A stretch of 36,566 nucleotides of DNA, from positions 1-36,566 of IMG/VR virus record IMGVR_UViG_3300012041_000044, one strand, 5' to 3'. Within the stretch, counting starts at the first letter, position 1. Each line of letters starts with the position of its first letter. Below the pieces are notes generated by a model, which had not been told where the DNA came from, searched no databases, and saw nothing but the letters and a program-made list of their open reading frames with translations. The position numbers and the translations under genes are program-made. This document shows positions 13,721 through 34,873 of this stretch, piece after piece. This stretch comes from a virus.

Positions 13721-14794
13721 CTAAAACATTATAATATCTTTGTCGTACTTTGGATTGGTGAAAACTTCTTTAAGATCGAACTCTATCCGATTGAGTGTGT
13801 TACCTTTGATATCTCGTTCCTCTAAGAAGCTCTTCTCTGTCATTCTGTATGGAACAAGCGCATCCTTCAATGACATGTATTGGAACTGTCGAATGTTCCC
13901 CTCTCTATAGGCCCCAAGCAGCCCTTCAGAGCAGTTCACATACCGCCCTGGAACGGAGCATGCGATGTGGTCTAGATAAAACTTGAAGTTCAAATATGAA
14001 CCCCATGTTTTCCTTAAGTTACCGTAGCAATCTGGCCATACGATGTAATTACCCATATTGTCATAATGGGTTTTATAGGAATGAAATGTGTTGTTATAAT
14101 CGAAGCAGAAATCCGCACCAACAAAGTGAACTACATCTGATCTTAAAACTACTTTGGTAAAGTAAAGACAGGCTCCAAGCGCGTTTCCACCCGTTCCTAG
14201 GTAATGCTTAAAGTTCTCGATCTTATCTAACTCTTTCCTAAATCCCTCTTCAGGGATGAAACAGTTGAATAGATTAACATCGCCTTGCCAATCCTTGAAC
14301 AATTCAGGATGTGAACAGGTATAGGCAAGAAGTTTCTGCCCCTTTGTCTTATCCCAGTACTCTTGTTCTTTGCGTCCTTCATTAATATCACGAATTACGA
14401 TGTCACCTGCATCAAGTGTCATCCAGTAGTCGGCTTTGATTCCCTCATCCATGAAGTAGCCAAAGTTATGAAGACACGAAATAACGGTGAGAGGATTCCG
14501 CATCGATTGATTCTGTTTTAGCGCGTCAATCGAGTGTTTCAACGATGGGCCTGAGCCTGCAATTATCGATGGGACATATGGAGTGACAGATCCGTAAAGC
14601 TTGCCAACTGAGTGGTCATGGAATGAGCCGAACTTCTCTTTAGTTTGCGCGTATTGCTTCAGCCAAATATCATGCCATGTCTTAATGGTAATCTGGTCGC
14701 CCTCACAAGCTCTAGCAAATATATTCCCTTGAGATGCGGGCGGGCCATCAATAAGAGGTTGGTAGATAAGGTCTATGTCTATGTTTCGAAGCAT
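13721..14794 (-). CDS. Maf-like (DUF115 / MptE-like) putative nonulosonate glycosyltransferase
   Basis: IIAGSGPSLKHSIDALK ... VISCLHNFGYFMDEGIKADYWMTLDAGD ... GTGGNALGACLYFTKVVLRSDVVHFVGADFCF matches my memory of the DUF115 core: GxGPSL, then (P/A)D(Y/F)..xxD, then G..a...A..lG...i.l.G.D. Confidence 0.55.
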   Translation of the reverse strand: MLRNIDIDLIYQPLIDGPPASQGNIFARACEGDQITIKTWHDIWLKQYAQTKEKFGSFHDHSVGKLYGSVTPYVPSIIAGSGPSLKHSIDALKQNQSMRNPLTVISCLHNFGYFMDEGIKADYWMTLDAGDIVIRDINEGRKEQEYWDKTKGQKLLAYTCSHPELFKDWQGDVNLFNCFIPEEGFRKELDKIENFKHYLGTGGNALGACLYFTKVVLRSDVVHFVGADFCFDYNNTFHSYKTHYDNMGNYIVWPDCYGNLRKTWGSYLNFKFYLDHIACSVPGRYVNCSEGLLGAYREGNIRQFQYMSLKDALVPYRMTEKSFLEERDIKGNTLNRIEFDLKEVFTNPKYDKDIIMF

Positions 14795-18060: not shown

Positions 18061-18261
18061 TTAATTAAGTTTCCCACCTAATGCCGCCTCGTATTTAGTT
18101 ATTAGTTCGTCGAGAGCTTTTCCATAGACATCCCCTTCGATAATACTGCGGGTCGCAACTAGAATTTGGATGAGGTGATACTCCCTCAGCGTGTTTGGCG
18201 CGTCCCAGATCTTCTTATCTTTCGCCAAGAGTTCACACCACTTTAGTAGCTTCACACTCAT
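18061..18261 (-). CDS. Hypothetical small protein
   Basis: 66-aa ORF with a 4-nt overlap with the upstream gene. Confidence 0.5.
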   Translation of the reverse strand: MSVKLLKWCELLAKDKKIWDAPNTLREYHLIQILVATRSIIEGDVYGKALDELITKYEAALGGKLN

Positions 18262-18983: not shown

Positions 18984-19039
18984 CCGATCCCACCCAGGCG
19001 ATCCGACAATAGAATTATACTCTAGCCAAGGTACTAACT

Positions 19040-21102: not shown

Positions 21103-22421
21103 GCTTCAACCCTCATTGTGAAATTAGTACACGTAATAGTATCGGCGGCATCGGCACCCGCGCCCCAAGTGGCAGTTAGATCCATGGCCTCAGACGTGGT
21201 ACCAATTGTCACCGTTGCAGTAGATGACATCTCCCAAATGGTTGGACTTCCCGCAGCAGTCGCAGTTGCCATGTGCTCGAACCATCCTTGAGAAAACACT
21301 GTGGTGGTTGTACGCCCTGTCAGAGTTGCATGGATGTGCCATTCTCTATTCGCCATTGAGCCTGCTGTGGTTGTTGCCGCCGTTTGACAGAGTACCGTTG
21401 CGCCCTTCTTAATCTTGAGCTGCAAAGTAATTGGAACAACTTCAGTCGAGTACACACCCCATGCCTCAATAACTAGAGTCTTGCCTGCAAAGAAGAAGCT
21501 TGCAGGGAGTGTGAGCGTTCCGACGCCAGATCCAATTATTGTAGTCTCGCTAGTAGTGTTGGTTACTGTTGCAGAAGCAGTAGAAACATAGAGTACGCCT
21601 GGCTGATAAGTCTTAATCCCAGTATTGATAAATTGAACAACTGTCTTCTGGGTTGAGTCATACCATCCATCGCCGTCAGTTGGAGATGTTGGGGCTGCAC
21701 CACTGCCCATTCGATACATTGGCTGGCCAGTATCTGATGCACCAAAGTGACAAATCCCACCAAGCCTTAGATCGTTGAAAAGATTCGACGCTTGGCCCAA
21801 GTCTATTTTACGAGTTGTCTGGGCGTACATCTTTCTAAGGGTCGAGTCCCCTAGGATTATGTCCCCAACCTTTCCTATCTCTGTGAGTGAGTTCCCCTCT
21901 ACGGTTAAAGTGTCCGCAGCACGTGAATAGATTCTATTTGTAGGTGCTCTAAACCGGGCCTCTCCTGCTGAAGCAAATGTCATATTTCCTGAGTTTGAAA
22001 AATTAAGTAGATCAGTAGTTGCTGAGTTTTCTATTACCAAAATATCAGCAGTTTGTGTTCCGTTACCTTGGATGATGAATTGAATCTGATCTGTGTCGCC
22101 ATCGATTGTTACTTTAGCGCTAGATAGTGCCGCTGTGTTTCCAATTACGACTTCATCAGTCGTGGTAACGAGTCTGACCACAGTTCCATCATCTTGCCAT
22201 CCAGAGGCTGAAGAAAGTGATGTGTTTGCAATTGTGACAGTGTCAGTCGCTGAGTCTCCAGTAACGGTGATCCCGGTTCCTGCAGTTACGGTTAAGGTAT
22301 CGGTGGGAGAATCTGCTACGAGTGAGGTGCCAGACGTGGTCGAAATAGTGGTAAACGAGTTTTGTGCGAATACAGTAGGTGGGAACTGTACAACTTGTTC
22401 ATTTTGGCAGTCGCATGACAT
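21099..22421 (-). CDS. Second fibre-like structural protein
   Basis: 440 aa. It contains TTISTTSGTSLVADSPTDTLTVTAGTGITVTGDSATDTVTIANTS-type repeats and a C-terminal beta-sandwich-like domain. Confidence 0.6.
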   Translation of the reverse strand: MSCDCQNEQVVQFPPTVFAQNSFTTISTTSGTSLVADSPTDTLTVTAGTGITVTGDSATDTVTIANTSLSSASGWQDDGTVVRLVTTTDEVVIGNTAALSSAKVTIDGDTDQIQFIIQGNGTQTADILVIENSATTDLLNFSNSGNMTFASAGEARFRAPTNRIYSRAADTLTVEGNSLTEIGKVGDIILGDSTLRKMYAQTTRKIDLGQASNLFNDLRLGGICHFGASDTGQPMYRMGSGAAPTSPTDGDGWYDSTQKTVVQFINTGIKTYQPGVLYVSTASATVTNTTSETTIIGSGVGTLTLPASFFFAGKTLVIEAWGVYSTEVVPITLQLKIKKGATVLCQTAATTTAGSMANREWHIHATLTGRTTTTVFSQGWFEHMATATAAGSPTIWEMSSTATVTIGTTSEAMDLTATWGAGADAADTITCTNFTMRVEA

Positions 22422-24644: not shown

Positions 24645-24956
24645 TTAAAGCGTGTATGGTTTACGTTGTCGCTTGACCGATTGCATCTTATCGCTACCGA
24701 CCGATTCGATCTTCATTCCGTACGTATCATTAGTTTTTCTAATAGTATCTTTTAGGTGATGATCGCTCTTAATCACCTTACCGAAGGCGTGAGAGTAATG
24801 GGCGTCACAGCCTTTGATTGCGAAGAGGGGTGGGCAGAACTGCATATCCATAGGTTGTTCGCATTCTCCGCAGAACTCTTTTTCGTCGGCACGTTTCATT
24901 GGCTTCATTACTTCTCGTTCTTGTCTGCAGTGAGTGCACCGATAGAGGTAGATCAT
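24645..24956 (-). CDS. Zinc-ribbon (FmdB-like CxxC...CxxC) protein
   Basis: The ATG at 24956 overlaps the TerL stop (ATGA). The product starts MIYLYRCTHCRQEREV...EFCGECEQPM. Confidence 0.6.
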   Translation of the reverse strand: MIYLYRCTHCRQEREVMKPMKRADEKEFCGECEQPMDMQFCPPLFAIKGCDAHYSHAFGKVIKSDHHLKDTIRKTNDTYGMKIESVGSDKMQSVKRQRKPYTL

Positions 24957-26272
24957 AGAGAATCCCAAGTCCTTCCTGATTTTACCCTTTTGCGAGGGTC
25001 AAATGTATCAATTTTTAGTGCTGATATACGAGTGCTTTTTACCCTCACCTCTTTATCCCATAGGTGCATCGTTCCAACTGTGAGGTATCGATCGCAGTCC
25101 ATCAAGTGATCGTTAAGTGGAACGGGCTTCTCGGTCTTATATGATCCCTCGTCTGTCTCATCATAGTGGTAGGTCTCATACTCATCTAGCGTGTGCGGGA
25201 GTTGAGAGGCGAAGAGCATGAAGCGGTTCGACTTGATGAGCTGAACGTGCTTGAGGATGCCGGCCTCTACTCCTTTAAACGATTCTCTTCCGACTTGGAA
25301 GCCAGAGGCTTGAAGACCCGACTTGTTAAAGGCTTCGATCATGTCAGGACGAGCTGGATCGCAATAGAAATGCTCTATGTTGTATGTGGCCTTCTTGCTT
25401 CGTGCGATCTGCACTTGTCCGTTTGGATCGAGGCCTGCTTGTTTGAACTCAGAGACATCGTAGACATAGCCACTGGGAGTGAAGGCGCGGACCTTGAGGC
25501 CGAACTCATGGCCTTCGACGAAGCCGAAGTCTATGCCTGCGAAGTATCTTGTTCCAGGCTCTAGGGTTTTAGGCTTGATAAGAATCTCTGAAGGAAGTTC
25601 ATAAACAAGGCCTGCCATCCTTTCGTGTTTTCCCATGAATTTGCGGCGGAACGTCCTAGCATCAAGAAGCTGCCTTTGGCGTTCGAACTCTTCTTTTGGG
25701 AACGAAGGGTTTTCATCAGACGAAAATTCAACATAACAGATATCCTCCCTCTCCTTGTTCTGAAATGGCTTGATCACCTCATGGAACAGCCAGTTTAAGG
25801 CATATGGGGTAGATGTGTAGATGGTCTTCCCCCCGAGTCTTGCAACTCTAGCCTGACAGTTTACTTTAAAAAGTCTAGAGCATTTGCCTGCTTCATCGAT
25901 CCAAGAGTGGGCACAGTCTGGGATACCTTCGACCTGGTCTGGATCGGTTGCCGTACGAAAGTAGACGAAGCCACCGTCACGCAAGATGAACTTCGAATCC
26001 TTGGCATTATAGTAGCCATAGGCTTTGGTGAAAATTTTCTTAAAAGTTGGAAGGAGTGATTGTTCTAGGATCTTGTAGGTGGGTGCGCCTACGAGGAAGT
26101 TGGCATTCGGGTATTTATTAAGGGTAATGAGTCTAAGAAGTGCGATTGACCCCCAAGAAGTTTTTCCACCTTGTATGCCACTGACAAGCGCGATCTCTCG
26201 AATGCGATCATTTGTGAGTGCTTGGTAGGCTTCGTTTTGGAACTTGTGGAGTTTGAATCGTTTGTCTTCCAT
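24953..26272 (-). CDS. terL: Terminase large subunit
   Basis: 439 aa with a Walker A-like VSGIQGGKTSWG, then WIDEAG (Walker B-like) and a C-terminal nuclease-like FYCDPARPDMIEAF. It lies between TerS and the portal. Confidence 0.85.
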   Translation of the reverse strand: MEDKRFKLHKFQNEAYQALTNDRIREIALVSGIQGGKTSWGSIALLRLITLNKYPNANFLVGAPTYKILEQSLLPTFKKIFTKAYGYYNAKDSKFILRDGGFVYFRTATDPDQVEGIPDCAHSWIDEAGKCSRLFKVNCQARVARLGGKTIYTSTPYALNWLFHEVIKPFQNKEREDICYVEFSSDENPSFPKEEFERQRQLLDARTFRRKFMGKHERMAGLVYELPSEILIKPKTLEPGTRYFAGIDFGFVEGHEFGLKVRAFTPSGYVYDVSEFKQAGLDPNGQVQIARSKKATYNIEHFYCDPARPDMIEAFNKSGLQASGFQVGRESFKGVEAGILKHVQLIKSNRFMLFASQLPHTLDEYETYHYDETDEGSYKTEKPVPLNDHLMDCDRYLTVGTMHLWDKEVRVKSTRISALKIDTFDPRKRVKSGRTWDSL

Positions 26273-26273
26273 C

Positions 26274-26651
26274 TCATTGTTTGAACTTATCCTCGCCTTT
26301 GGCGTGTTCTACAATAAGAGAGTGAGTAGAGTGCTGCTCGATGTCTATCTGGTCTCGCCATCCGAAGCGATTCTTCATGTTGAAGATCCAGAGGGTTGTG
26401 TTAAGTGATGAGCCGTCTGGATCTTTCCTCAATCCTTCGATGCCAACCTTCTCCCAAAACAGCCTGCTATGAGTGAATGCGAGCTTTTTGGCCTCTTGAA
26501 ACTCTGGATGAACCTTAAGCCATTCGTAGAGGTTCCCATCTGCAATATCGATAACGGCTCCGAATGACTCAAAGCTATATCCTTTGCGCATGTGTTCAAT
26601 TAACATGTCGCAATATTCAGGTTTATATTTTGTGGGTCTCCCTCCTGGCAT
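26274..26651 (-). CDS. terS: Terminase small subunit
   Basis: MPGGRPTKYKPEYCDMLIEHMRKGYSFESFGAVIDIADGNLYEWLKVHPEFQEA is the common TerS HTH N-terminus (GRPtkY.pe). Confidence 0.75.
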   Translation of the reverse strand: MPGGRPTKYKPEYCDMLIEHMRKGYSFESFGAVIDIADGNLYEWLKVHPEFQEAKKLAFTHSRLFWEKVGIEGLRKDPDGSSLNTTLWIFNMKNRFGWRDQIDIEQHSTHSLIVEHAKGEDKFKQ

Positions 26652-26663
26652 ACGTTTATTCTA

Positions 26664-26975
26664 TCATGATCTTTTAGGTTGTTCGTCTGCTAGTTCTTGC
26701 TTATAGGTTCGTGCATCAATGTTGCGGATAACACGAGCAGTCCGATCTTCGAGAGTTATATTACTTTGGAGCCCTTTTACTGGGATCTTGCCCAATCTAT
26801 CGACTGTAAACTCAAGTGTTTGCGTGAGCTTGTCTATCGACAGTTGATGTGACAGCAAGGAGGACTCCATCTTTTTTTGTTTCACGTGGAACCGACACAC
26901 TACGACAAATAGTGAGATTATGCTAAACCATAGTAAACTTGCTATAACTTGAGTGGTTATCACTCTAATCTCCAT
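26664..26975 (-). CDS. Membrane-anchored helical protein
   Basis: 103 aa with an N-terminal TM (ASLLWFSIISLFVVVC) followed by a helical region. The architecture resembles 31572..31883. Confidence 0.5.
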   Translation of the reverse strand: MEIRVITTQVIASLLWFSIISLFVVVCRFHVKQKKMESSLLSHQLSIDKLTQTLEFTVDRLGKIPVKGLQSNITLEDRTARVIRNIDARTYKQELADEQPKRS

Positions 26976-27526
26976 CCTTGACTCAAGTAACTATCTCTCA
27001 GCATTTCGATGAAGTGGCAGTCTACGTATTTACCGAACTTGAAGTATCGTTCTCTTAAGGTTCCGCAGCGTTTCATTCCTATGCGTGTGAACAGGTCGAT
27101 GGCGGGATTCAAGTCGAACGTTTCGCCCCAGATAGAGTGTAGGTTTAGTTGATCGAATCCGTAACGGAAGAGTTCTTTTAGTGCGAGCTCTCCCCATCCT
27201 TGTCGGTGGTATTTGGGTGCGATAAGTAGAGAGAATTCGGCGTGTCTATGTTGATGGTGAATTGAGGTAAGTCCGCATGTTCCGACGATCTCGCCGATGC
27301 TTGGGCCTTGGCCTTCTCTTAGTTTTGTTGACAGTACTTTCACGCCGAACATTCTAACGGTCGAGTCTTGGGTTACGCGTTCGAACCAATTGTGCATATC
27401 GAACTCATTGATGATTCCGTTTTGTCGCGTCCATCGGTTAATACGTGAGTCGTTACGCCAGGCGAGTTGATCTCCTGCAATCTCGTGAGTCAGTTCAATC
27501 TTGTTTATTTTTGGGGATAGGTCCAT
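26960..27526 (-). CDS. GNAT N-acetyltransferase, PseH/RimL-like
   Basis: Contains AWRNDSRINRW...MHNWFERV (the WRN...H..W pattern of PseH-like enzymes) and the acetyl-CoA motif RQGWGE in KYHRQGWGELALKELFRYGF. Confidence 0.7.
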   Translation of the reverse strand: MDLSPKINKIELTHEIAGDQLAWRNDSRINRWTRQNGIINEFDMHNWFERVTQDSTVRMFGVKVLSTKLREGQGPSIGEIVGTCGLTSIHHQHRHAEFSLLIAPKYHRQGWGELALKELFRYGFDQLNLHSIWGETFDLNPAIDLFTRIGMKRCGTLRERYFKFGKYVDCHFIEMLRDSYLSQGWRLE

Positions 27527-27771
27527 GTTTTCTTGATATAGACGATCTTTCTATATTCTATGTTTTGGTATCCGGTTTCCGAGTGTTTTTTAGAGACAAA
27601 TCTATGGGTTAAAGGGAGTTCATCTCTTAGTTGTTCGAATTCACTTGGGGATAACCATACCGCTTTTGGGCGTTCGTTCCAATGAATTGCGACAATTGCT
27701 GCAGCGAATTGACCAAATCCATCTTCTTCTAGCGATCTGGCCTTTTCGTTCATCTGGTCAGTGACGGTCAT
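27505..27771 (-). CDS. Hypothetical protein inside the sugar cassette
   Basis: 88-aa ORF overlapping both neighbours. Confidence 0.5.
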   Translation of the reverse strand: MTVTDQMNEKARSLEEDGFGQFAAAIVAIHWNERPKAVWLSPSEFEQLRDELPLTHRFVSKKHSETGYQNIEYRKIVYIKKTWTYPQK

Positions 27772-28991
27772 CTTTTAAAGCTAGTTTCGGGTGGTTTTCC
27801 TTCTAGTTTCACTTCGTTCCTAGTGATCTTCCCTACGACATCGTTTGCGATGTTCATTACTCGTTCGTCTATCCCCTCCTCAAGGTGTGCGAAGTTATAA
27901 TAGAAGGCTTTACCGATCAGCACACCGCTTTTACACATCTCTTGCATGAAGAGTTGGGACGCATCGGTTGTGATGTCTAGCTGAGCTCTGGTTCCGTAGC
28001 CAACAAACTGGATACTCGGGTGTAGTTTGTTTAGGTTTTTAATAAGCTTCGAGCCGTAAAAGTTAAGATCGTGGAGTGACTTTTGTTCTATTTCGGTCAT
28101 GGTGGCGAGCGCTGCTGCTAATGATAGGATCTCTCCTGAGTAGGTGGATGAAACGAAGTAGTCTGAGTCGTTCATGATGTCGGCTTTGCCTGCGACGACT
28201 GCTAGGGGCATGCCGTTGGCGATTGCTTTACCTAGAGTGATGATATGGGGTTTTAGTGAGAAGTAGTTGCTTATGGTGAAGCGTGGGACTCTAAATCCTG
28301 TTACGATCTCATCGAAGATGATGGGGATATCTTGTTTTGCTTTTGCGAATTCGAACAGTCTATTTAGTTCGCTCTTCCTATGATCGTTTAACTCAAGCTC
28401 TACGGGTTCTAAGATGATACCTGCACACCACTTAATGTAGGTATCTGAGGCCTTAATGATCATATCATCTATGTCTTTAAACTGAGTCATTTTAAGCGTT
28501 AGAGAATCTGGAACCCCAAGGTGTGGAGCGGTGAGAGAGGTCCAACTATCTCCGTGTCCGTGATATCCGGCCGATAAGATCTCGTAGTCTCCACTTGCCG
28601 CTCTTGCGATCCGTATTGCCGCGAGTGTGGCTTCGTTGCCAGTCTTAAGAAACCGGATGCGTTCTGCTGCAGGGATGAGCGTTTGAATCTTTTCTGCTAC
28701 TTGCACCTCTAAGATGTGGGGAAGCGAATGAGAGGCGCCCTTAGATGCGGCGTCCCTTATGCTTTCAGTTACTTTTGGGTGATTATATCCAAGGATGTTC
28801 ACCCCTAAGCCAGAGATGAAGTCGATATACTTGTTACCCCATGCGTCCGTTAAGTAGCAGGCGTTACCAGAGACAACATGAGATGGGTAGATGCCATCTA
28901 TGAAGTGGGTATGACGTTTTGAGTTTGTTCCTGGGAATCCTTGCGCTAGCGAGTCGTTAGCACGTTCTACCCATTCCTCTGTTACCTTCAT
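27768..28991 (-). CDS. Class III PLP aminotransferase (glutamate-1-semialdehyde aminomutase-like)
   Basis: 407 aa with YLTDAWGNKYIDFISGLGVNILGYNHPKV, GNEATLAAIRIARA, FDEIVTGFR and the PLP-lysine context ITLGKAIANGMPLAVVAG. Confidence 0.75.
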   Translation of the reverse strand: MKVTEEWVERANDSLAQGFPGTNSKRHTHFIDGIYPSHVVSGNACYLTDAWGNKYIDFISGLGVNILGYNHPKVTESIRDAASKGASHSLPHILEVQVAEKIQTLIPAAERIRFLKTGNEATLAAIRIARAASGDYEILSAGYHGHGDSWTSLTAPHLGVPDSLTLKMTQFKDIDDMIIKASDTYIKWCAGIILEPVELELNDHRKSELNRLFEFAKAKQDIPIIFDEIVTGFRVPRFTISNYFSLKPHIITLGKAIANGMPLAVVAGKADIMNDSDYFVSSTYSGEILSLAAALATMTEIEQKSLHDLNFYGSKLIKNLNKLHPSIQFVGYGTRAQLDITTDASQLFMQEMCKSGVLIGKAFYYNFAHLEEGIDERVMNIANDVVGKITRNEVKLEGKPPETSFKR

Positions 28992-29646
28992 ACCAATTCC
29001 TTGCTGCTTCTAGAGTTTCTTTTGTATCGATTGAGAACTTATCGATATGAACCATCTTGCCCCATCCACCATTTATCATCTGTTTATATGTGAACCCATC
29101 TTTCTTCATTTCATCGCGCCTATGGTAGCAATGATCGAAAGCAAAGAATGGATGCTCCCTATTATCTTCGTACTTGTCGTAATACTGAAGAAACGGCAGT
29201 AGGCATACTTGCACATCTTGATCTTCTGGATAAGAACGCATGATTGTGTTTGAGCAATACTGGGTTTCAGTCTTTAGAAGAATATCAATAGCCTCGACGA
29301 TCACTTGTTTGTGGATGAACGGACAATCTGCGGTAATGCGAACGATCACGTCGGCATGTTGTTCAGTCGCTGCTAGCGAGTATCTTGCGACGAGATCGTC
29401 TTCTTCGCAGTGTAGACTGGAATATTCAAGACCGTGATTAGCGCAAAACTCACCGAGCTTTTCGTCCTGGACCGTTCCGATAACGATTGGTTTACATTCA
29501 CCCCAAAGCTTAGTCGCTGTTTCTGCAGCCATTTTAGAATTGAGGTAACACCACTCTAAAACGGATCGCTCCCCGATCATCTCATAGATCTTACCTGGGA
29601 GTCTTGCTCCACCGCTTCTTGCTTGTATGCCGATCAGGATCTTCAT
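28957..29646 (-). CDS. Cytidylyltransferase (CMP-sugar synthetase, PseF/SpsF/NeuA-like)
   Basis: The N-terminal MKILIGIQARSGGARLPGKIYEMIG matches the IpAR.gS.RLPGK signature of CTP_transf_3-type enzymes. Confidence 0.7.
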   Translation of the reverse strand: MKILIGIQARSGGARLPGKIYEMIGERSVLEWCYLNSKMAAETATKLWGECKPIVIGTVQDEKLGEFCANHGLEYSSLHCEEDDLVARYSLAATEQHADVIVRITADCPFIHKQVIVEAIDILLKTETQYCSNTIMRSYPEDQDVQVCLLPFLQYYDKYEDNREHPFFAFDHCYHRRDEMKKDGFTYKQMINGGWGKMVHIDKFSIDTKETLEAARNWYEGNRGMGRTC

Positions 29647-29873
29647 TCCCCAAGTTCTCGCTTTAAGTGTTCGATTACTTCTGCGACTCTTCCCTCTTCG
29701 AATAAATCCGCAACCGATCTATGTCCGAAGCACGCGTGAGTAGAGAACCACCACTTTTTAGCCATTTCTTCGTTGAACGAGAACTTCTTCATTGTTAGGT
29801 AGTTGGCGAGCGCTTGGTTCTTCACACTGGATGCCCAGCTTCTATTGGCCGTATTATATTTTCCTCTCTTCAT
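29643..29873 (-). CDS. Small protein with a DUF2384-like (Xre/MbcA/ParS antitoxin C-terminal) motif
   Basis: EEMAKKWWFSTHACFGHRSVADLFEEGRVAEVIEHLKRELGE resembles the a..Wl..p...lgg.sP.dll....G...v...L.ri..G pattern. Confidence 0.35.
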   Translation of the reverse strand: MKRGKYNTANRSWASSVKNQALANYLTMKKFSFNEEMAKKWWFSTHACFGHRSVADLFEEGRVAEVIEHLKRELGE

Positions 29874-30601
29874 CTTTGTCCGTACTCAGTCACTTGGTTG
29901 GCTACATAGAGGTGTACAGCATCGGTCATGTCACAAGCCTCTTCTAGACCCCAGAGCTTAGAGCGGAAGTAGGTGTTCGGGTTTAGAAAGTGGGTAATCA
30001 TCTCGACGTAAGAGTCTTCGATATCACGAAGTGAGACGTTCACTGAATCGTTGATATAGACATCGAACCTTGGGGATTCCGTCTTAAATGAGAGCGCGCA
30101 TTTAAGTTTACGTGCTAAGTGAATTAGCTGGCAACAATCCCAAACCATGTAGTCGCTCCCGTGGTTAAAGTAGTTATATGAGATTTTATTGATTCCTGTT
30201 TTCTCTTTATCTGCTGACTTTGGTTCCCACTTAAGCATTACCTGAACGATTGCACGTTCCCAGTTATTAACTACATAGCCCTTCACATCGTTCTTCAGAG
30301 CAAGGTTCATCACATCTTTGCACTCGCTCATGTTCTTCGATAGTGGCTTCTCGACTAAGAACTCCCTCTTAAGAACGATCATCTCTTTGCAGATTGCAAC
30401 GTGAGTGTCCGTAGGAGTGGCAATAATGGCTTTTTCAAACTCCCATGCCCTCCAAGGCATCTCTCCTTCGAACGGATCTAAAACATCGTAGGTGATAATT
30501 GACAGATCTTTGTGAGCAACTTCTACAGATTTAAGGTACTTAAGGATGGCGAGGTATCGTCTTCCGATTCGGCCTTCGTGTCCTAAGAGTAATACCTTCA
30601 T
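29870..30601 (-). CDS. Gfo/Idh/MocA-type NAD(P)-dependent sugar oxidoreductase (short)
   Basis: Has an N-terminal Rossmann MKVLLLGHEGRIGRRY, then AIIATPTDTHVAICKEM and the family's EKP motif in FLVEKPLS. Confidence 0.6.
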   Translation of the reverse strand: MKVLLLGHEGRIGRRYLAILKYLKSVEVAHKDLSIITYDVLDPFEGEMPWRAWEFEKAIIATPTDTHVAICKEMIVLKREFLVEKPLSKNMSECKDVMNLALKNDVKGYVVNNWERAIVQVMLKWEPKSADKEKTGINKISYNYFNHGSDYMVWDCCQLIHLARKLKCALSFKTESPRFDVYINDSVNVSLRDIEDSYVEMITHFLNPNTYFRSKLWGLEEACDMTDAVHLYVANQVTEYGQR

Positions 30602-31575
30602 ATTACCTCATCGATCATGGCATTTAACTCATCATCATTAATGGCTCTGGCATTAAGGGAGGTAAATTCTTGTTTGATTGGGCTTCCACGCTTCTTTGCG
30701 GGGAACAGGTGATAAGATGGCCATATGATATATCGATCCTCTAGCTCGGTTGTCATGGCGATCTCGTCTTTCGAAATGAGAACCTCATGCATCTTTTCTC
30801 CGGGTCTTACGCCCACGGTCTTTAGAGCCTCTCGCTCGAACACATAATCTTCTCTTGAAACCCCGAGTCTCTTAACCATGGTCTCAAACAGATACTTCAT
30901 CGTAGTCGCCTTCATTTTCGGGACGAACACCTCGGCTCCACGTGAGTCCTCTAAGCATGAGACCACAAACTTGGCGGCATCTCCCTTAGAGATGAAGAAT
31001 CGGGACATGTCGTAGTGGGTTATCTGAATTGATTCTCTTTTTTTAAGTCTCTTGGCCCAAATGGTTGCGACTGAGCCTTGAGAACCAAAGACATTGCCGT
31101 ATCGCGCGACCGAGAAGCGAGCAGTTCCACCCCCGATGTTTGCCTGAATAAATAGCTTCTCCGCAACAAGCTTTGTTGCTCCATAGACGTTAATTGGCGC
31201 AACTGCTTTATCTGTCGATGTAAAAATTGCTCTCCCCACCCCCATCTTCTTGCAGGCTGAGATAACGTTCCCAGTGCCGTGAATATTAGTTTTAACTGCT
31301 TCATCTGGATCGTACTCCGCTTTATCTACATGTTTCATGGCTGCGAAGTGAAACACCCACTCAGCTCCATTCACAGCACGTTCTACTCGTTCAGCGTCTC
31401 TAATATCGCCAATAAAGAAGTCAAGCTTAGATGACGTAAGCTCTCTCGCCATTTCGACTTGTCTATGCTCGCCACGAGAGAGAATACGAATGCGATTGAT
31501 ACGGGGATTAAGGAGAAGCTCTTTAACCACCTCTGTTCCGAGCGTTCCGGTTCCACCGAGAATTGTAACAATCAT
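30598..31575 (-). CDS. UDP-GlcNAc 4,6-dehydratase (PseB/FlaA1/CapD-like extended SDR)
   Basis: ILGGTGTLG (TGxxGxxG), FFIGDIRD, FHFAAMKHV, TSTDKAVAPINVYGATKLVAEK (DK...YxxxK), FSVARYGNVFGSQGSV and VRPGEKMHEVLIS all closely parallel PseB/FlaA1 as I recall it. Confidence 0.8.
   Translation of the reverse strand: MIVTILGGTGTLGTEVVKELLLNPRINRIRILSRGEHRQVEMARELTSSKLDFFIGDIRDAERVERAVNGAEWVFHFAAMKHVDKAEYDPDEAVKTNIHGTGNVISACKKMGVGRAIFTSTDKAVAPINVYGATKLVAEKLFIQANIGGGTARFSVARYGNVFGSQGSVATIWAKRLKKRESIQITHYDMSRFFISKGDAAKFVVSCLEDSRGAEVFVPKMKATTMKYLFETMVKRLGVSREDYVFEREALKTVGVRPGEKMHEVLISKDEIAMTTELEDRYIIWPSYHLFPAKKRGSPIKQEFTSLNARAINDDELNAMIDEVI
31171..31202. repeat. Exact 32-nt direct repeat, copy A (inside the dehydratase gene, over the APINVYGATK codons)
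   Basis: ctttgttgctccatagacgttaattggcgcaa is identical to 35617..35648. Confidence 0.95.
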
Positions 31576-31883
31576 TTTGGGCTTCGAATGAATACGTGAT
31601 CTGGGTTCACGGATTGGATATCTAAGATGAGCTTCCGCTCTGACTCGAACCGCGAAATAAGATGGGCAATAGATGTCTCGAGCTTAACCTCAGCGTTTGC
31701 TTTAACTAACGTAGCGAGCCTCTGATCGATATCGGAATGGTGCTTAGAAGACCTTTCTTGAATGGCAGCCATCGCATTAAGAAGGTCCTTCATGTCTCGT
31801 TTTAGCAGATTAACTGAGAACGCTTGTGAGGCTATGAGGAGGATTACTGAGAGAGTAAAGAATATGACACTCATCGGATCCAT
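31572..31883 (-). CDS. Membrane-anchored helical protein, first gene of the late operon
   Basis: 103 aa with an N-terminal TM (VIFFTLSVILLIASQAF) followed by a helical region. It lies directly downstream of a near-consensus promoter. Confidence 0.55.
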   Translation of the reverse strand: MDPMSVIFFTLSVILLIASQAFSVNLLKRDMKDLLNAMAAIQERSSKHHSDIDQRLATLVKANAEVKLETSIAHLISRFESERKLILDIQSVNPDHVFIRSPK

Positions 31884-31889
31884 CTCCCC

Positions 31890-31918
31890 TATATATTAAC
31901 CACGACAAGAATGGTCAA
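31890..31918 (-). promoter_or_regulatory. Sigma70-like promoter for the long minus-strand operon
   Basis: The minus strand reads TTGACC-17 nt-TATATA, followed by ggggagATG. The -10 ends only 6 nt before the first ATG, so the transcript may be leaderless or the second ATG (31874) may be used. Confidence 0.45.
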
Positions 31919-31993
31919 CGAATTAGCGCAATAATGTCCTACCTTAGTCATCCCCATCGGGTCATTTCGCAGTGTTACGTATGGCATACAGCT

Positions 31994-32002
31994 TGCTATA
32001 TA
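31994..32002 (+). promoter_or_regulatory. Extended -10 promoter element for the plus-strand block
   Basis: TGCTATATA (TGn + TATATA) lies 22 nt upstream of the ATG at 32025, with GGAGAAGGAG between them. The -35 is weak. Confidence 0.35.
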
Positions 32003-32024
32003 CGTATGGAGAAGGAGACCAATC

Positions 32025-32228
32025 ATGAAGCCAAATGCCTACGTAATTGAAACGCTCTCAGGAAGCCTGCAGATCACAAGTCAAACATACCCAAAAGACA
32101 CGACCGTCTATCTAAACCTCAAGATGATCTCAACTGAGGGAAGAGTCAGAATTGAAGAGTTTAATGTTGCTATGGATAAAAGAGACCTAAAACAACTGGC
32201 AGCGATCTTTGCAACTTTAGCAAAGTAA
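32025..32228 (+). CDS. Hypothetical small protein
   Basis: 67-aa ORF with a good RBS, followed by a hairpin and T-tract. Confidence 0.6.
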   Translation: MKPNAYVIETLSGSLQITSQTYPKDTTVYLNLKMISTEGRVRIEEFNVAMDKRDLKQLAAIFATLAK

Positions 32229-32236
32229 ACTGTCAT

Positions 32237-32280
32237 GGGTTGGGGGGCCAAGGATTGGTCTCCTAACCCCTAACCCTTTT
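32237..32280 (+). terminator. Intrinsic terminator / attenuator-like hairpin
   Basis: gggttggggg ... cccctaaccc (10 bp with one G-U pair) is followed by TTTT, then by AAGGAGG of the next gene. Confidence 0.45.
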
Positions 32281-32295
32281 AAGGAGGATTCTATT

Positions 32296-32478
32296 ATGAA
32301 GTCACTATTCGCTCTAATCGCGTTCACTGCAGTCATTATGAACTCTAGCTCGGTTTCTTCGCAGCAGATCGTCAGCGGCTATCTACGTTCGAATGGCACC
32401 TATGTAAGCCCCTATATCCGATCGACTCCAGACTCCTACAAGTTCAATAACTATGGCTGCATGACTCCGAAGCGTTAA
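32296..32478 (+). CDS. Small secreted peptide
   Basis: 60 aa with AAGGAGG upstream and the signal peptide MKSLFALIAFTAVIMNSSSVSS. The mature part (GYLRSNGTYVSPYIRSTPDSYKFNNYG) resembles a repeat motif common in small secreted bacterial proteins. Confidence 0.6.
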   Translation: MKSLFALIAFTAVIMNSSSVSSQQIVSGYLRSNGTYVSPYIRSTPDSYKFNNYGCMTPKR

Positions 32479-33164
32479 ACTCTCAGTGCCTTGGAAGGGG
32501 AAAAACATGGAACAAGAGACGTACGAATTGATCGATGGGCTGTTTTATATCGTACTGCGCTAGTTTACCGCTCTGAAGCTCTTTTTTTTTCTTCTGTGGG
32601 AACTTTGATAGGTACCGATATAAGTTAGTTCAGATCTTAACTTCTTGGGTTTGGTGACTTCTAAGTTGGTACAAGAGCTTGGGTTCCCGAATGCTCAGTA
32701 CGATATAAGAGAATACAGAAGAAGAAATCATTAGAAGAAAAGGATGACCAAGCTCCCGCTGGTCGCTTGGCTCATATCGGAGGTGCTTCGACAAGATGCC
32801 CAGAGCCTGAGCAAGAGTGCGGGTAAAGCCCTGTATTCAAAGCGCAAAAGCCACTTTGGATAGAGGTATACACCCACCAGACTGAACTTATTTCATTCAA
32901 GTCCAAGCTTAAGTAACAGGTTCTCATGCCCGTCACCGTCGCAGTCGGCGTGCTGTGCTTTAAACCAGGACTTATTTAACGACATCCCTGGTCAGGTGAC
33001 AGAAACCCGTGCCCTCTGTCGGAGAATTCTCTTGAGCTACTTGGGAGTGTGTGGGACTGTTCCTGCACAAGCCCTAAGTAGCTCAAGAGAGTTCTTACGT
33101 AAGAGGCCTAAGAAGTCGAATAGATTTCTAGGCCTCTTGCGCTTTTATTTCTAGATGAGTATCC
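32479..33164 (+). other. 0.69-kb ORF-free, dyad-rich region (candidate large structured RNA, leader/attenuator or origin)
   Basis: No ORF of 60 aa or more on either strand in an otherwise tightly packed genome. It contains several long-range complementarities and ends in a strong plus-strand terminator (details in findings). Confidence 0.35.
33101..33151 (+). terminator. Rho-independent terminator
   Basis: aagaggccta...taggcctctt is a 10-bp perfect stem, extendable by 3 more pairs. It is followed by gcgcTTTTATTT, 14 nt before the VRR-NUC start codon. Confidence 0.6.
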
Positions 33165-33551
33165 ATGCGGTCTAGCGGGTCAGTAAAAGAACGACACATT
33201 GAGGCATTAATTGGGGATTATTTGAAGATCTCCAAAATCTTCTTCTTTAAGTGCCCCATGTCCGGTTACTTCGATACTAAACCTACATGGGGTTTACCTC
33301 GATTCCGTCCCCACGCCTCCCCCTACGTTCGCAACGGAACCCCAGACCTTATCGCTGTTATCAACGGTCAGTTCATTGGATTCGAAGTAAAGTCTAAAGG
33401 AGGGAAACAGTCAGACGCACAGAAATCCTTCCAGATCGACGTAAAAGCTGCAGGTGGCATGTACTTCTTAGTTAAGTCTCTGGAAGATGTGCAGAAGGCT
33501 CTCAGTTCGTTAGGACTATGTAAAAGTATCTATCCAGAGGCCTTGAGTTAG
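33165..33551 (+). CDS. VRR-NUC domain (PD-(D/E)xK) nuclease
   Basis: NGTPDLIAVINGQFIGFEVKSKGGKQSDAQKSFQIDVKAAGGMYFLVKSLEDV matches the VRR-NUC pattern G.PDl....g...fiEvK...g.ls..Q......G.....v.s.ed. Confidence 0.6.
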   Translation: MRSSGSVKERHIEALIGDYLKISKIFFFKCPMSGYFDTKPTWGLPRFRPHASPYVRNGTPDLIAVINGQFIGFEVKSKGGKQSDAQKSFQIDVKAAGGMYFLVKSLEDVQKALSSLGLCKSIYPEALS

Positions 33552-34362: not shown

Positions 34363-34541
34363 ATCTTTATGCTGGTCACGTAGTGCAGGACATTAAAAAT
34401 TCTCAGTAGCCATAGGACTAAAACTATAACCAACGTGATATTCAAAATCTTTTTAACAGTCGCTTCCATGGGGATTAAATTAATTAGGTAAGCCACGATA
34501 CCAACGACTCCGACCGTGATGATTAAGGTTATTAAGCTCAT
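34359..34541 (-). CDS. Small two-TM membrane protein
   Basis: 60 aa and almost entirely hydrophobic (LITLIITVGVVGIVAYLINLIP ... ITLVIVLVLWLLRIF). Confidence 0.55.
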   Translation of the reverse strand: MSLITLIITVGVVGIVAYLINLIPMEATVKKILNITLVIVLVLWLLRIFNVLHYVTSIKI

Positions 34542-34873
34542 TTTTTCTCCATCTTCGTTAATCTCCGCTCATGGTCGTTGAGGATGTTGAATATTTTATC
34601 GATGTATGGGAACACAAGCGGAGTGCCGTTATTCCTAATCGGTTGATGCCCATCCTTCGGCTCATCCTCGATAACCCAATCATCTGATATAATATCCAAT
34701 GCGGTTAAGTTAAAGGAGGTAACTTTCTCGAATTCATCTAACCAGAGACTCCATTCCTTTCTCTTAAACCTCTTCCCCGACTTCACTGCCTCAATCAGAG
34801 TCAACGCATATTCCTCGTTGTTAAATGGAATGCCGTAAACCCCACTACAATCCAAAATATAAAAACGCCCCAA
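34538..34873 (-). CDS. DUF2829/Tad2-like small protein (candidate anti-Thoeris sponge); start uncertain (TTG)
   Basis: YALTLIEAVKSGKRFKRKEWSLWL ... LTALDIISDDWVIED resembles the DUF2829 pattern f.eAl.alk.GkkvrRk.W ... DlladDW.i. The middle is shorter than I remember for the family. Confidence 0.35.
   Translation of the reverse strand: MGRFYILDCSGVYGIPFNNEEYALTLIEAVKSGKRFKRKEWSLWLDEFEKVTSFNLTALDIISDDWVIEDEPKDGHQPIRNNGTPLVFPYIDKIFNILNDHERRLTKMEKK

Follow-up and report, generated by a model that had tools for sequence, protein, structure and literature searches.

Among the closest described counterparts of the locus analysed here is the CMP-pseudaminic acid pathway of C. jejuni and H. pylori, in which six enzymes (PseB, PseC, PseH, PseG, PseI and PseF) serve six steps. 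Nonulosonates are handled further by Maf enzymes, which take several CMP-ulosonates (Pse, Leg, Neu5Ac and Kdo) and of which every characterised example has flagellin as its target (bioRxiv 10.1101/2020.06.03.131540). In the Pse-type LPS locus of Legionella pneumophila Sg6/12, genes for a GNAT, PseG, a class-III aminotransferase and a cytidylyltransferase are grouped (PMC3694923). Among viruses, LBVG_26 from Lake Biwa carries neuA/B/C, capD, pseA, pglC and pglD, and clusters of this kind were read as serving host-surface remodelling (bioRxiv 10.1101/655167). Mycobacteriophages, in the work of Freeman et al. (2023, Cell Host Microbe) as it is presented in PMC12619734, decorate capsid or tail proteins by means of a glycosyltransferase encoded beside the virion structural genes.

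The stretch of DNA analysed in this work (the window; 36,566 nucleotides, IMG/VR record IMGVR_UViG_3300012041_000044) is the complete genome of an uncultured SU10/P22-like podophage of 36.4 kb, because its ends share an exact direct repeat of 123 bp; the gene absences reported below therefore apply genome-wide. We lean, without strong conviction, towards the view that it encodes one system in two parts: a cassette that would supply the sugar by a non-canonical CMP-nonulosonate pathway, with the NeuB step probably borne by the host in this phage, and a miniature Maf-type O-glycosyltransferase (mini-Maf) beside the capsid gene, which would most likely decorate a capsid protein. The cassette and its flanks comprise the following genes:

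31572..31883, (-) strand: first operon gene; 103-aa protein with a single TM-like hydrophobic segment at its N-terminus
30598..31575, (-) strand: PseB-like UDP-GlcNAc 4,6-dehydratase (Polysacc_synt_2 SDR; PF02719, 274 bits)
29870..30601, (-) strand: truncated Gfo/Idh/MocA dehydrogenase, WlbA/WbpB-like (PF01408, 32.7 bits)
29643..29873, (-) strand: 76-aa ORF, translationally coupled on both sides by 4-bp overlaps
28957..29646, (-) strand: CTP_transf_3 cytidylyltransferase, SpsF/KdsB-like (PF02348, 42.9 bits, N-terminal half)
27768..28991, (-) strand: class-III PLP aminotransferase, GSA-aminomutase/GenB-like (PF00202, 130.9 bits)
27505..27771, (-) strand: 88-aa ORF, translationally coupled, with overlaps of 4 and 22 bp to the genes on either side
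26960..27526, (-) strand: PseH-like GNAT N-acetyltransferase (PF13302, 52.2 bits)
26664..26975, (-) strand: final gene ahead of the terminase; 103-aa protein with a single hydrophobic segment at its N-terminus
26274-26651, (-) strand: putative small terminase TerS (position and homologues in 12 related loci)
24953-26272, (-) strand: large terminase TerL (PF03237, 27.8 bits; about 23% identity to phage terminases)

The five enzyme ORFs lie exactly where the original prediction had placed them, and all the motifs it quoted are found in the translations. The cassette forms a single operon in which neighbouring genes overlap by 4-35 bp, has the orientation of the terminase and head genes, and continues into TerS and TerL immediately downstream, as had been anticipated. 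The late promoter assumed ahead of it is unsupported: a sigma-70 consensus scan of positions 31500-33300 gave no site. The two small interleaved ORFs are present as described, and neither matched any family in Pfam and NCBIfam scans; homologues of the 76-aa ORF were found in none of 126 related loci, and matches of the 88-aa ORF are confined to copies of this same phage. The two bracketing proteins, which had been called architecturally similar, do each have one hydrophobic segment (Kyte-Doolittle maximum 2.26 at residues 6-24 in the upstream protein and 2.36 at residues 9-27 in the downstream one), but are unrelated to each other, no homology between them being detected (BLASTP E = 0.09). The upstream gene overlaps that of the PseB-like enzyme by 4 bp and has weak homologues (E about 1e-4) directly upstream of PseB in five relatives, while a search of the relatives found no homologue of the downstream one.

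Pfam, NCBIfam and structure searches establish the enzyme types at the superfamily level, as proposed, and all NCBIfam equivalog cut-offs were missed (PseB, PseH, hemL and KdsB). The PseB-like protein, in which the TDK and YGATK motifs are found, scores 299.7 bits against TIGR03589 (PseB), under the cut-off of 407.75, and ranks FlaA1/PseB of H. pylori (2gn4, 228 bits) first in the PDB, followed by CapE/FnlA, with PglF at 102 bits. The Gfo protein, with 243 aa instead of the usual 310-350 or so, retains the invariant EKP motif (residues 84-86); its AF2 model (pLDDT 88.9) finds in Foldseek the UDP-GlcNAcA 3-dehydrogenase WlbA/WbpB as the best match (3oa0, E = 8e-10, TMq 0.66), and also GnnA (7bvj). 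The truncation (198-243 aa) is common to this phage and its closest homologues. The putative CMP-ulosonate synthetase gave weak NCBIfam matches to the KdsB subfamily and none to PseF, and in the PDB it matched a single entry, 6oew, an uncharacterised cytidylyltransferase (E = 1.4e-13). The aminotransferase, the only one in the genome, has the invariant PLP lysine K255, reaches 187 bits against the hemL models, far under their cut-offs, and has GSAMs and GenB-type C-6' sugar aminotransferases as its nearest PDB structures; its assignment to class III instead of the DegT/PseC type holds. The top NCBIfam match of the GNAT is TIGR03585 (PseH; 60.7 bits, under the cut-off of 93.1); among PDB sequences it comes closest to SpeG-type diamine acetyltransferases.

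The absences claimed at the outset are equally firm. For NeuB/PseI, tblastn against the genome gave a best E of 0.17, a six-frame search (--max) with a profile of 58 phage NeuBs reached at most 9.3 bits, with the top score in an alanine-rich coiled-coil ORF, and hhalign against the unassigned ORFs returned probabilities below 1%. A Pfam scan of every ORF of at least 200 aa matched neither DegT/PseC nor PseG or NeuC. No UDP-sugar hydrolase or 2-epimerase (PseG, LegG or NeuC) was found in the window, and none appears in the precomputed Pfam annotations of seven related phage contigs; one canonical step is thus without a candidate.

The cassette is a conserved module of a large family of uncultured phages. 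At E <= 1e-10 the aminotransferase has 688 homologues, of which the close ones (40-53% identity) are mostly on contigs of 30-40 kb; cellular relatives reach at most 36% identity. A relative is encoded on 172 IMG/VR viral contigs. The genes for the PseB-like enzyme, Gfo, cytidylyltransferase, aminotransferase and GNAT occur together in conserved order (90 loci; the cytidylyltransferase gene is present in 85 of them). All of the approximately 14 closest relatives have, between PseB and Gfo, a NeuB of 165-234 aa that keeps the KFQ, GFSDHT, IEKH and PD motifs and lacks the SAF domain; in a seemingly NeuB-less subfamily, a full-length NeuB adjoins TerL on the same contigs. The earlier description of the cassette as incomplete is thus right in that NeuB is gone from this phage, but it is not a peculiar fragment, since the rest of the family carries NeuB, and it represents the conserved core of a family pathway. 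Its incompleteness amounts to the lineage-specific loss of one gene, while PseG and a DegT-type aminotransferase are missing throughout the family, which argues for a non-canonical set of enzymes and not for incompleteness.

The presumed consumer of the sugar lies in the head module, where the original prediction did not record it:

16383-17345, (-) strand: head gene p320; candidate Maf substrate or partner
15389-16321, (-) strand: major capsid protein, MCP (phrog_9953 "major head protein", E = 4e-51); candidate Maf substrate or partner
14863-15366, (-) strand: head gene p167; candidate Maf substrate or partner
13721..14794, (-) strand: mini-Maf, 357 aa, MptE-like/MAF_flag10 (PF01973, 64 bits; cut-off 34.6)

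We regard the mini-Maf as a putative CMP-ulosonate:protein O-glycosyltransferase. Its AF2 model (pLDDT 93.6) ranks the Maf structure 5MU5 first in Foldseek against the PDB (E = 7e-11 over 288 columns), with the MptE HPPK ranking behind it (E = 4e-6). No NCBIfam model is matched. The protein has 1334 homologues on phage-sized contigs; its profile extends to proteins of 600 aa that match the PseD/Maf models and Maf_flag10_N, and aligns with their central region, the phage protein having neither the N-terminal nor the C-terminal domains found in flagellar Mafs. Every family member has a mini-Maf in this fixed block: p320, MCP, p167 and mini-Maf follow one another with the same spacing in 38 of 38 loci, including those in which the sugar genes have been relocated. 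Ten IMG/VR contigs are common to the aminotransferase and Maf scans, and for at least 20 pairs of one aminotransferase and one Maf homologue the longest contigs are identical in size. The mini-Maf is the probable consumer of the product of the cassette; it is gene position alone that points to a head protein as its acceptor, and serine and threonine make up 17.4% of MCP and 19.2% of p167.

In the pathway that we propose, we infer from the gene content the substrates, the order of steps, the stereochemistry of the sugar, the role of Gfo, the removal of UDP without PseG, and the acceptor protein. The PseB-like dehydratase would convert UDP-GlcNAc to UDP-4-keto-6-deoxy-HexNAc, the class-III aminotransferase would replace the DegT-type PseC/LegC in introducing the second amino group, and the GNAT would acetylate it. 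The WlbA-like Gfo dehydrogenase may act jointly with the aminotransferase; by our own reasoning, a WlbA-type oxidation at C3 would be incompatible with formation of the nonulosonate pyranose ring. In the phage family, the NeuB-type synthase would then condense the hexose with PEP, forming a Pse/Leg-type 5,7-diamino nonulosonate, the SpsF/KdsB-like enzyme would activate it to the CMP-sugar, and the mini-Maf would move it to Ser/Thr of a protein, most likely MCP or its neighbours p167 or p320, yielding a virion decorated with nonulosonate. Since NeuB is cleanly absent from the window phage and all other components are intact, a NeuB/PseI/LegI of the host would probably carry out its condensation step, or else the mini-Maf may use another CMP-ulosonate from the host. 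The suggestion that the phage completes or redirects a host pathway, which missed the family context and the mini-Maf, is thus still live for this phage, because its genome has no NeuB/PseI, PseG or DegT/PseC. For the family as a whole, the data suggest phages that coat their own particles with sugar.

The standard published reading of viral NulO/LPS clusters (the Lake Biwa viruses, bioRxiv 10.1101/655167; marine phage pseI, PMC6359870) would make these genes auxiliary metabolic genes for host-surface remodelling, with the sugar going to LPS, capsule or flagellin, the Maf-like enzyme modifying flagellin or another protein of the host and not the virion, and superinfection exclusion or altered receptor glycans as possible roles. 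The flagellin targets of characterised Mafs are in its favour, and a phage without NeuB would be most easily accommodated by a host with a nonulosonate pathway of its own; however, membrane glycosyltransferases, flippases, polymerases and integrases are all missing from the genome, its sole transferase is locked into the head-gene block and is without the domains that flank the core of flagellar Mafs, and the cassette shares its orientation with the terminase and head genes, into which it continues by overlap, so that we regard this reading as rather unlikely. Somewhat less probable still is that the pathway of this phage stops at a di-N-acetyl trideoxyhexose in nucleotide-activated form (bacillosamine or 6-deoxy-AltdiNAc type) or at a 2,3-diacetamido sugar, with no nonulosonate made and both the cytidylyltransferase and the Maf-like protein acting on a different substrate. 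For the former, PseB, an aminotransferase and a GNAT suffice in the established chemistry of the Pse and Bac pathways; for the latter, the WlbA-like dehydrogenase, aminotransferase and GNAT would offer a route, the Gfo model being nearest to UDP-GlcNAc(A) 3-dehydrogenases, which are partners of aminotransferases and acetyltransferases. The lack of NeuB, PseG and NeuC agrees with either product, but the phage has kept both the cytidylyltransferase and the Maf-like gene in conserved form, and to our knowledge 2-keto-3-deoxy-ulosonic acids (as CMP donors) are the only known partners of these two families. Moreover, all close relatives have NeuB, and the genome encodes no Leloir-type glycosyltransferase for a UDP-sugar.

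Loss of NeuB could also have left the remaining cassette genes as functionless passengers, given that the window phage alone among its approximately 14 close relatives lacks this gene, that one relative (L288) has a NeuB further shortened to 165 aa, and that the cytidylyltransferase deviates at two of nine conserved positions, one of them inside the N-terminal nucleotide-binding motif. We consider such decay very unlikely, as every ORF is intact and tightly overlapping, PseB and Gfo meet in a clean ATGA overlap without pseudogene debris, nearly all family-conserved residues are retained elsewhere (39/39 in the PseB-like protein, 12/12 in Gfo, 47/50 in the aminotransferase and 12/12 in the GNAT), and about 4.6 kb of useless DNA would hardly survive in a 36-kb podophage. 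Hypermodification of the phage DNA by the sugar, as a shield from restriction, is scarcely credible: glycosylation of DNA from nucleotide sugars is generally known in phages and is among the subjects presented in PMC12619734, but no genes for hydroxymethyl-pyrimidine synthesis or resembling DNA glycosyltransferases were found in this genome, and its sole transferase is a homologue of Maf-type protein glycosyltransferases.

The nonulosonate pathway that we favour shares with the CMP-Pse pathway the initial PseB-family 4,6-dehydratase, a PseH-like GNAT, a CTP_transf_3 enzyme and, in the relatives, a NeuB-family synthase, so that six phage enzymes take the place of its six steps. It differs in that its aminotransferase is of class III (GSA/GenB-like) whereas PseC is of the DegT type, in that PseG is absent and a truncated Gfo/Idh/MocA dehydrogenase is added, and in that NeuB is devoid of SAF in the closest relatives and missing entirely in the window phage. 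The Gfo model is nearest to the dehydrogenases of the WlbA/WbpB-WbpE and GnnA-GnnB pairs; however, the partner aminotransferases WbpE and GnnB are DegT-type, while the phage partner is class III and the phage Gfo is truncated. GenB of the GenQ/GenB C-6' oxidation-transamination system provides the nearest sugar-acting structures to the phage aminotransferase. The thaumarchaeal NeuC-AT-Gfo-NeuB-CTP cluster of Nitrosotalea devanaterra (L093) is sialic-type and has the same aminotransferase, Gfo, NeuB and cytidylyltransferase set as the phage family, with Gfo adjoining the aminotransferase, and both this cluster and that of Legionella share with the phage the unusual pairing of a class-III aminotransferase with a cytidylyltransferase inside NulO-type clusters; we found no biochemical characterisation of either one in the literature searched. 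Their aminotransferases are only 27-36% identical to the phage enzyme, and the cellular clusters retain NeuC or PseG, a full-length Gfo and NeuB, unlike the window phage.

With the flagellin Mafs (M. magneticum 5MU5, GkMaf, CbMaf and C. jejuni PseD/PseE) the mini-Maf has in common the PF01973 central domain, 5MU5 as top structural match, and genetic linkage to nonulosonate biosynthesis genes. In contrast to these proteins of about 610-670 aa, it consists of 357 aa without Maf_flag10_N or the C-terminal domain, and its gene sits in a block of phage head genes and not in a flagellar locus, its presumed acceptor being a capsid protein instead of flagellin. The Lake Biwa clusters are likewise viral contigs with NulO-type biosynthesis genes; however, they feature NeuC and DegT/PglC-type enzymes, whereas the phage family has the class-III aminotransferase, Gfo and the SpsF-like cytidylyltransferase, and neither a Maf-type transferase nor a link to capsid genes was reported for them (bioRxiv 10.1101/655167). 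Virion glycosylation in mycobacteriophages, as far as the account in PMC12619734 goes, offers the same arrangement of a phage-encoded glycosyltransferase beside structural genes, the decoration in our case being a prediction. According to that account, mycobacteriophages employ Leloir-type enzymes and nucleotide sugars of the host, whereas the phage family described here would combine a multi-enzyme pathway of its own with a CMP-ulosonate-dependent enzyme of the Maf type.

The five enzymes encoded at 26960-31575 most likely represent the donor-synthesis half of a nonulosonate (NulO) protein-glycosylation system, whose transferase would be a small Maf-like protein ("mini-Maf") encoded in the head-gene block.

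Principal features of the window phage
30598-31575, minus strand: PseB-like dehydratase, an SDR of the Polysacc_synt_2 family (PF02719, 274 bits)
29870-30601, minus strand: Gfo/Idh/MocA protein (Gfo) of 243 aa (PF01408, 32.7 bits against a cut-off of 24)
28957-29646, minus strand: cytidylyltransferase (CTP; CTP_transf_3, 42.9 bits against a cut-off of 22.6)
27768-28991, minus strand: class-III aminotransferase (AT; PF00202, 130.9 bits against a cut-off of 30.5)
26960-27526, minus strand: GNAT, with PseH (TIGR03585) as its best NCBIfam profile (60.7 bits, under the cut-off of 93.1)
15389-16321: major head protein, i.e. the major capsid protein, MCP (phrog_9953)
13721-14794, minus strand: mini-Maf, 357 aa (PF01973, MptE-like / MAF_flag10, 64 bits against a cut-off of 34.6)
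11359-12006: SU10-type adaptor
within the window: portal (PF16510/PF23899)

Both ends of the window carry the same exact 123-bp direct repeat (1-123 and 36444-36566), which indicates a complete genome of about 36.4 kb, either circularly assembled or terminally redundant. The portal, the SU10-type adaptor and the major head protein identify the phage as an SU10/P22-like podovirus. A metagenome contig in ENA matches the window; among the deposited phage genomes (50,697 records) there is no close DNA match to the cassette region (24900-32000), and the large terminase (TerL) shows only about 23% identity to known large terminases. The cassette region lies at the start of a single long minus-strand gene array that extends from 31883 to about 2300. 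Nine ORFs between 31883 and 26664 overlap their neighbors by 4-35 bp, and beyond 26664 the array continues, across intervals of 12 bp and 1 bp, into the putative small terminase (TerS) and then TerL. The two small ORFs that the original prediction had seen interleaved in the cassette do exist (76 and 88 aa); they are translationally coupled, and no homologs of them were found outside the window phage among 126 related viral loci. The two 103-aa proteins that flank the cassette, said to be architecturally similar, have one N-terminal hydrophobic segment each, but are unrelated to each other (E = 0.09), and we discarded the idea that they are paralogs. The proposed late promoter was not recovered either: a scan for the sigma-70 consensus upstream of the cassette revealed no site, although a phage-specific promoter might escape such a scan.

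Several other genes of the array deserve mention. Between TerL and the portal lies a small protein with a zinc-ribbon match (24645-24968, minus strand; PF09723, 28.3 bits, below the cut-off of 34.4); the zinc-ribbon family is annotated at the matching position in relatives L003-L005, L008, L286 and L288, and L006/L007, L285 and L287 have a gene there without this annotation. A 157-aa protein encoded just upstream of the adaptor gene (12022-12495, minus strand) gives a sub-threshold C2H2 zinc-finger-like match, and a candidate endolysin of the Peptidase_M15 family (2829-3254, minus strand; PF08291, 42.9 bits) is found at the end of the array. At 34538-34873 (minus strand) a sub-threshold match to Tad2 (Thoeris anti-defence 2; E = 0.0023, 18.9 bits, cut-off 25) spans only about 15 residues and is probably noise.

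According to Pfam and NCBIfam profile searches, all five predicted enzymes are present and had been assigned to the right superfamilies. For the dehydratase, the best NCBIfam model is PseB (TIGR03589, 299.7 bits, under the equivalog cut-off of 407.75) and the nearest solved structure is FlaA1/PseB of H. pylori (2gn4, 228 bits), followed by CapE/FnlA, with the retaining enzyme PglF at 102 bits; the sequence does not distinguish an inverting from a retaining enzyme. The Gfo protein has the invariant EKP motif and a confident AlphaFold2 model (pLDDT 88.9), whose fold is nearest to the UDP-GlcNAcA 3-dehydrogenases WlbA/WbpB and also matches GnnA; both WlbA/WbpB and GnnA act in tandem with an aminotransferase. 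No Pfam match was obtained for a C-terminal domain in its 243 residues, while an archaeal homolog of 334 aa contains PF22725 and PF02894. The cytidylyltransferase gives weak matches to KdsB-subfamily models and none to PseF (TIGR03584) among NCBIfam models at E <= 0.01, and its sole relative in the PDB is the uncharacterized cytidylyltransferase 6OEW. The PLP-binding lysine (K255, in TLGKAIANG) does not vary among 35 homologs of the aminotransferase, the only one in the genome. With 187 bits, under the cut-off of 527, the enzyme is not HemL; the solved structures nearest to it are those of GSA aminomutases and C-6' sugar aminotransferases of the GenB type. The PDB sequences closest to the GNAT are SpeG-type acetyltransferases.

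The original prediction that the genome lacks NeuB/PseI and PseG was borne out by tblastn, a six-frame HMM search, hhalign and a Pfam scan of ORFs of at least 200 aa. With three phage NeuB sequences as queries, tblastn against the window gave a best E-value of 0.17, and an HMM of 58 phage NeuB sequences, run with --max on all six frames, reached 9.3 bits at best, at 17734-17976, a match we rejected as an alanine-rich coiled-coil ORF. Profile alignment of NeuB with the unassigned proteins p241 and p440 and with Gfo gave probabilities below 1%. PF03102 (NeuB/PseI) is absent from the complete window genome and present in relatives; the Pfam scan likewise yielded no DegT/PseC (PF01041), PseG or NeuC. 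The possibility of a NeuB remnant fused to the C-terminus of the PseB-like protein was dismissed, as relatives have native PseB tails that align with this one; the PseB/Gfo junction is a clean ATGA overlap with no pseudogene remnant in it.

The cassette belongs to a large family of uncultured phages. The AT has 688 homologs at E <= 1e-10, of which the close ones (40-53% identity) are mostly on contigs of 30-40 kb; 172 IMG/VR viral contigs encode a relative, and the best cellular homologs are only 27-36% identical. In deposited phage genomes the AT matches only hemL/argD-type genes, mostly in contaminated records, and its own clade was not found there; a scan of metagenome contigs returned, among the matches listed, only distant aminotransferases of at most 37% identity. 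When the ORFs of 90 loci were labeled with iterated HMMs, the core PseB-Gfo-CTP-AT-GNAT was found to recur in conserved order. In all of the closest relatives (about 14; L003-L013, L088 and L285-L288) a short putative NeuB of 165-234 aa lies between PseB and Gfo (e.g. L003:5475-6146, L006:7939-8580, L008:6179-6835, L010:6655-7335 and L012:5210-5908, and also in L285-L288). These mini-NeuBs retain the KFQ, GFSDHT, IEKH and PD motifs of the metal and PEP site and lack the entire SAF domain, which in canonical NeuB contributes to the active site of the partner subunit. A second subfamily, at first seemingly devoid of NeuB, turned out to encode a full-length version on the same contigs, immediately (about 1 kb) upstream of TerL (L182, L184, L189, L192, L193, L199, L200 and L202), so that the pathway is split, with PseB-Gfo-CTP-AT-GNAT elsewhere in the genome (locus pairs L182-L015, L184-L020, L189-L019, L192-L026, L193-L028 and L202-L025). 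With the mini-form in close relatives and the full-length form next to TerL, NeuB is present in almost the whole family, the window phage being the exception. The description of the cassette as incomplete holds for the window genome, from which NeuB, PseG and DegT/PseC are absent, but not for the family with respect to NeuB, and the family-level picture is the more interesting of the two. In the relatives examined, the precomputed Pfam annotation lists no PseG, NeuC or DegT. A cassette with rearranged genes, as a rule PseB-AT-CTP-Gfo-NeuB (full length) and in most cases with GNAT, occurs on viral contigs of 104-131 kb (L053, L058, L068, L072, L073, L080 and L081), in which the Maf HMM for the family of the window phage finds no match; the cassette is hence common to unrelated phage lineages.

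The mini-Maf is encoded two genes downstream of the MCP. Its AlphaFold2 model, built on 42 homologs (pLDDT 93.6), has the Maf glycosyltransferase of Magnetospirillum magneticum as its best Foldseek match in the PDB (5MU5, E = 7e-11, 288 aligned columns) and an archaeal MptE kinase (HPPK) as the second (E = 4e-6, about 200 columns); on these E-values and aligned columns an MptE-type kinase is the less likely assignment. A profile search of 1.84 billion representatives retrieved 1,333 clusters, mostly of 290-420-aa proteins, and also proteins of 500-630 aa, to whose central region almost the entire phage protein aligns; in the latter, matches to the NCBIfam PseD flagellin-modification model extend along the protein, and one of them carries the N-terminal domain of Mafs. 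The mini-Maf itself shows no match to that domain (Maf_flag10_N, PF20157). In Mafs, catalysis resides in the GT-A-like domain PF01973; these enzymes place CMP-activated pseudaminic acid (Pse), legionaminic acid (Leg), Neu5Ac and even Kdo on Ser/Thr of flagellin (bioRxiv 10.1101/2020.06.03.131540). The PF01973 match, the 5MU5 fold and the central-region alignment together point to a stand-alone Maf catalytic core without flanking domains. Two residues of the mini-Maf, D122 and D128, are invariant; in the alignment with chain 5MU5_A they pair with D318 and E324, in a numbering not reconciled with that of the published residues. The catalytic acidic residues of the M. magneticum enzyme are reportedly Asp324 and Glu415, and the second of the published residues falls outside the stretch aligned to the mini-Maf.

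All 38 Maf-positive loci that extend far enough upstream keep the gene order p320-MCP-p167-Maf and its spacing, including those in which the sugar genes have been relocated. Linkage of cassette and Maf is evident from ten IMG/VR contigs found in both the AT and the Maf scans, and from at least 20 pairs of AT and Maf homologs whose longest contigs are of identical size. Ser and Thr make up 17% of the MCP and 19% of p167; PDB sequence searches with p167 and p320 gave nothing significant. Deposited phage genomes contain no match to the Maf-like protein, and in BFVD only uncharacterized "MptE-like" proteins of uncultured viruses match it, at 13-17% identity. The head genes are separated from a portal-proximal gene by a block of some 4.7 kb (17734-22421, minus strand) with nine ORFs (440, 102, 118, 285, 93, 86, 241, 66 and 80 aa), apparently an insertion into the head module that is specific to this lineage. 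None of the nine has a homolog in the 126 related viral loci or a Pfam or PHROG match, and we therefore set the block aside as a source of a replacement enzyme. Its 285-aa protein contains 26% Ser+Thr, and the adjacent 86- and 93-aa ORFs (19040-19300 and 19301-19582, minus strand; 54% identity, E = 1e-31) are tandem paralogs.

On the basis of family membership and established Pse/Leg chemistry, the pathway may be envisaged as follows. The PseB-like enzyme would carry out 4,6-dehydration of UDP-GlcNAc, and the product would be aminated by the class-III AT, the sole one available, possibly in coupling to the Gfo dehydrogenase. Oxidation of the hexose at C3, as by WlbA, would block formation of the nonulosonate pyranose, hence action at another position or a reductive role of Gfo is more likely. 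N-acetylation by the GNAT, condensation with PEP by NeuB and CMP activation by the cytidylyltransferase would follow; for the UDP-releasing step there is no candidate among the Pfam matches of the window or the Pfam lists of its relatives. The mini-Maf would then transfer the sugar, presumably to a head protein (MCP, p167 or p320), as suggested by its invariant position in the head-gene block. We tentatively propose that this uncultured SU10/P22-like podophage family, with over 1,300 Maf-like clusters, makes its own CMP-sialic-acid-like sugar with a non-canonical, minimized enzyme set (a class-III AT in place of PseC/LegC, a truncated WlbA-like dehydrogenase, a SAF-less mini-NeuB and no PseG), and that the mini-Maf O-glycosylates the capsid.

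Viral NulO genes are usually read in viromics papers as remodeling the host surface (PMC6359870; bioRxiv 10.1101/655167). For this cassette we regard such a role as unlikely, since the window genome encodes no membrane glycosyltransferase, flippase or integrase, and its sole transferase is locked in position next to the capsid genes. Somewhat less likely still, the end product of the window phage, which has no NeuB, might not be a nonulosonate at all; in that case the conserved cytidylyltransferase and Maf would be left without a substrate. That the cassette is decaying after the loss of NeuB seems improbable in view of the intact, overlapping ORFs and of residue conservation: among positions at least 90% conserved in the family, the window enzymes keep 39/39 in PseB, 12/12 in Gfo, 12/12 in GNAT, 47/50 in AT and 7/9 in CTP. 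Going by these residues, the loss of NeuB has evidently not been followed by decay of the other enzymes, and most simply the synthase, and perhaps the hydrolase too, would come from the host; alternatively, the mini-Maf of the window phage may use another, host-made CMP-ulosonate. Glycosylation of phage DNA, for which we found nothing in support, is very improbable.

If capsid glycosylation by the mini-Maf is correct, it would constitute the first system of protein "sialylation" encoded by a virus and the first Maf with a non-flagellin substrate, and natural phage particles could bear self-made sialic-acid-like sugars. On the surfaces of bacteria and animals, such sugars govern recognition, charge and visibility to the immune system, and a nonulosonate coat on the capsid could affect virion stability, adhesion to mucus and biofilms, grazing and immune clearance. 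The window phage would then be a natural variant in which the synthase step is handed to the host; its lack of NeuB makes it a natural experiment on the sharing of a pathway between phage and host. The family would also provide a compact toolkit for glyco-engineering (a 357-aa Maf, a SAF-less NeuB of about 220 aa and a class-III AT route to diamino sugars) and a genetic handle on two poorly understood types of cellular clusters, those of Thaumarchaeota and of Legionella Sg6/12.

Parts of this picture have precedents: genes for NulO biosynthesis have been recorded among the auxiliary metabolic genes of viral contigs (PMC6359870; bioRxiv 10.1101/655167), virion glycosylation is known in mycobacteriophages (as cited in PMC12619734), and Mafs are known from flagellar systems (bioRxiv 10.1101/2020.06.03.131540). 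In the literature on phage NulO, Maf and virion glycosylation we found no description of the enzyme set of the cassette (class-III AT, truncated Gfo, SpsF-like CTP, SAF-less NeuB and no PseG), nor any account of a Maf-type enzyme in a virus or of such an enzyme being constantly linked to capsid genes. Compared with the canonical Pse pathway, the window has a class-III AT (PF00202) instead of the DegT/DnrJ/EryC1-type PseC; PseG, the GT-B / GT28-like UDP-sugar hydrolase, is missing both from the window and from the Pfam lists of its relatives, whereas PseI/NeuB is missing from the window but present in the relatives. The mini-Maf shares the PF01973 domain and the 5MU5 fold with flagellin Mafs, which are about 600-670 aa long and have N- and C-terminal flanking domains that it lacks, and the window Gfo, with its PF01408 match and EKP motif, is a truncated WlbA-like protein. 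Among cellular loci, the LPS locus of Legionella Sg6/12 contains GNAT-PseG-class-III AT-cytidylyltransferase adjoining DegT and CapD (PMC3694923). The chromosomal cluster of Nitrosotalea devanaterra (L093:8752-15139; a Thaumarchaeota MAG, L092, is listed with it) has the order NeuC-AT-Gfo-NeuB-CTP-NeuB, with a NeuC-like 2-epimerase, a full-length Gfo (334 aa), a CTP_transf_3 cytidylyltransferase, SAF domains in both NeuBs and no PseB within 10 kb. This arrangement suggests an uncharacterized route to amino-nonulosonates, in which oxidation by Gfo is followed by class-III transamination.
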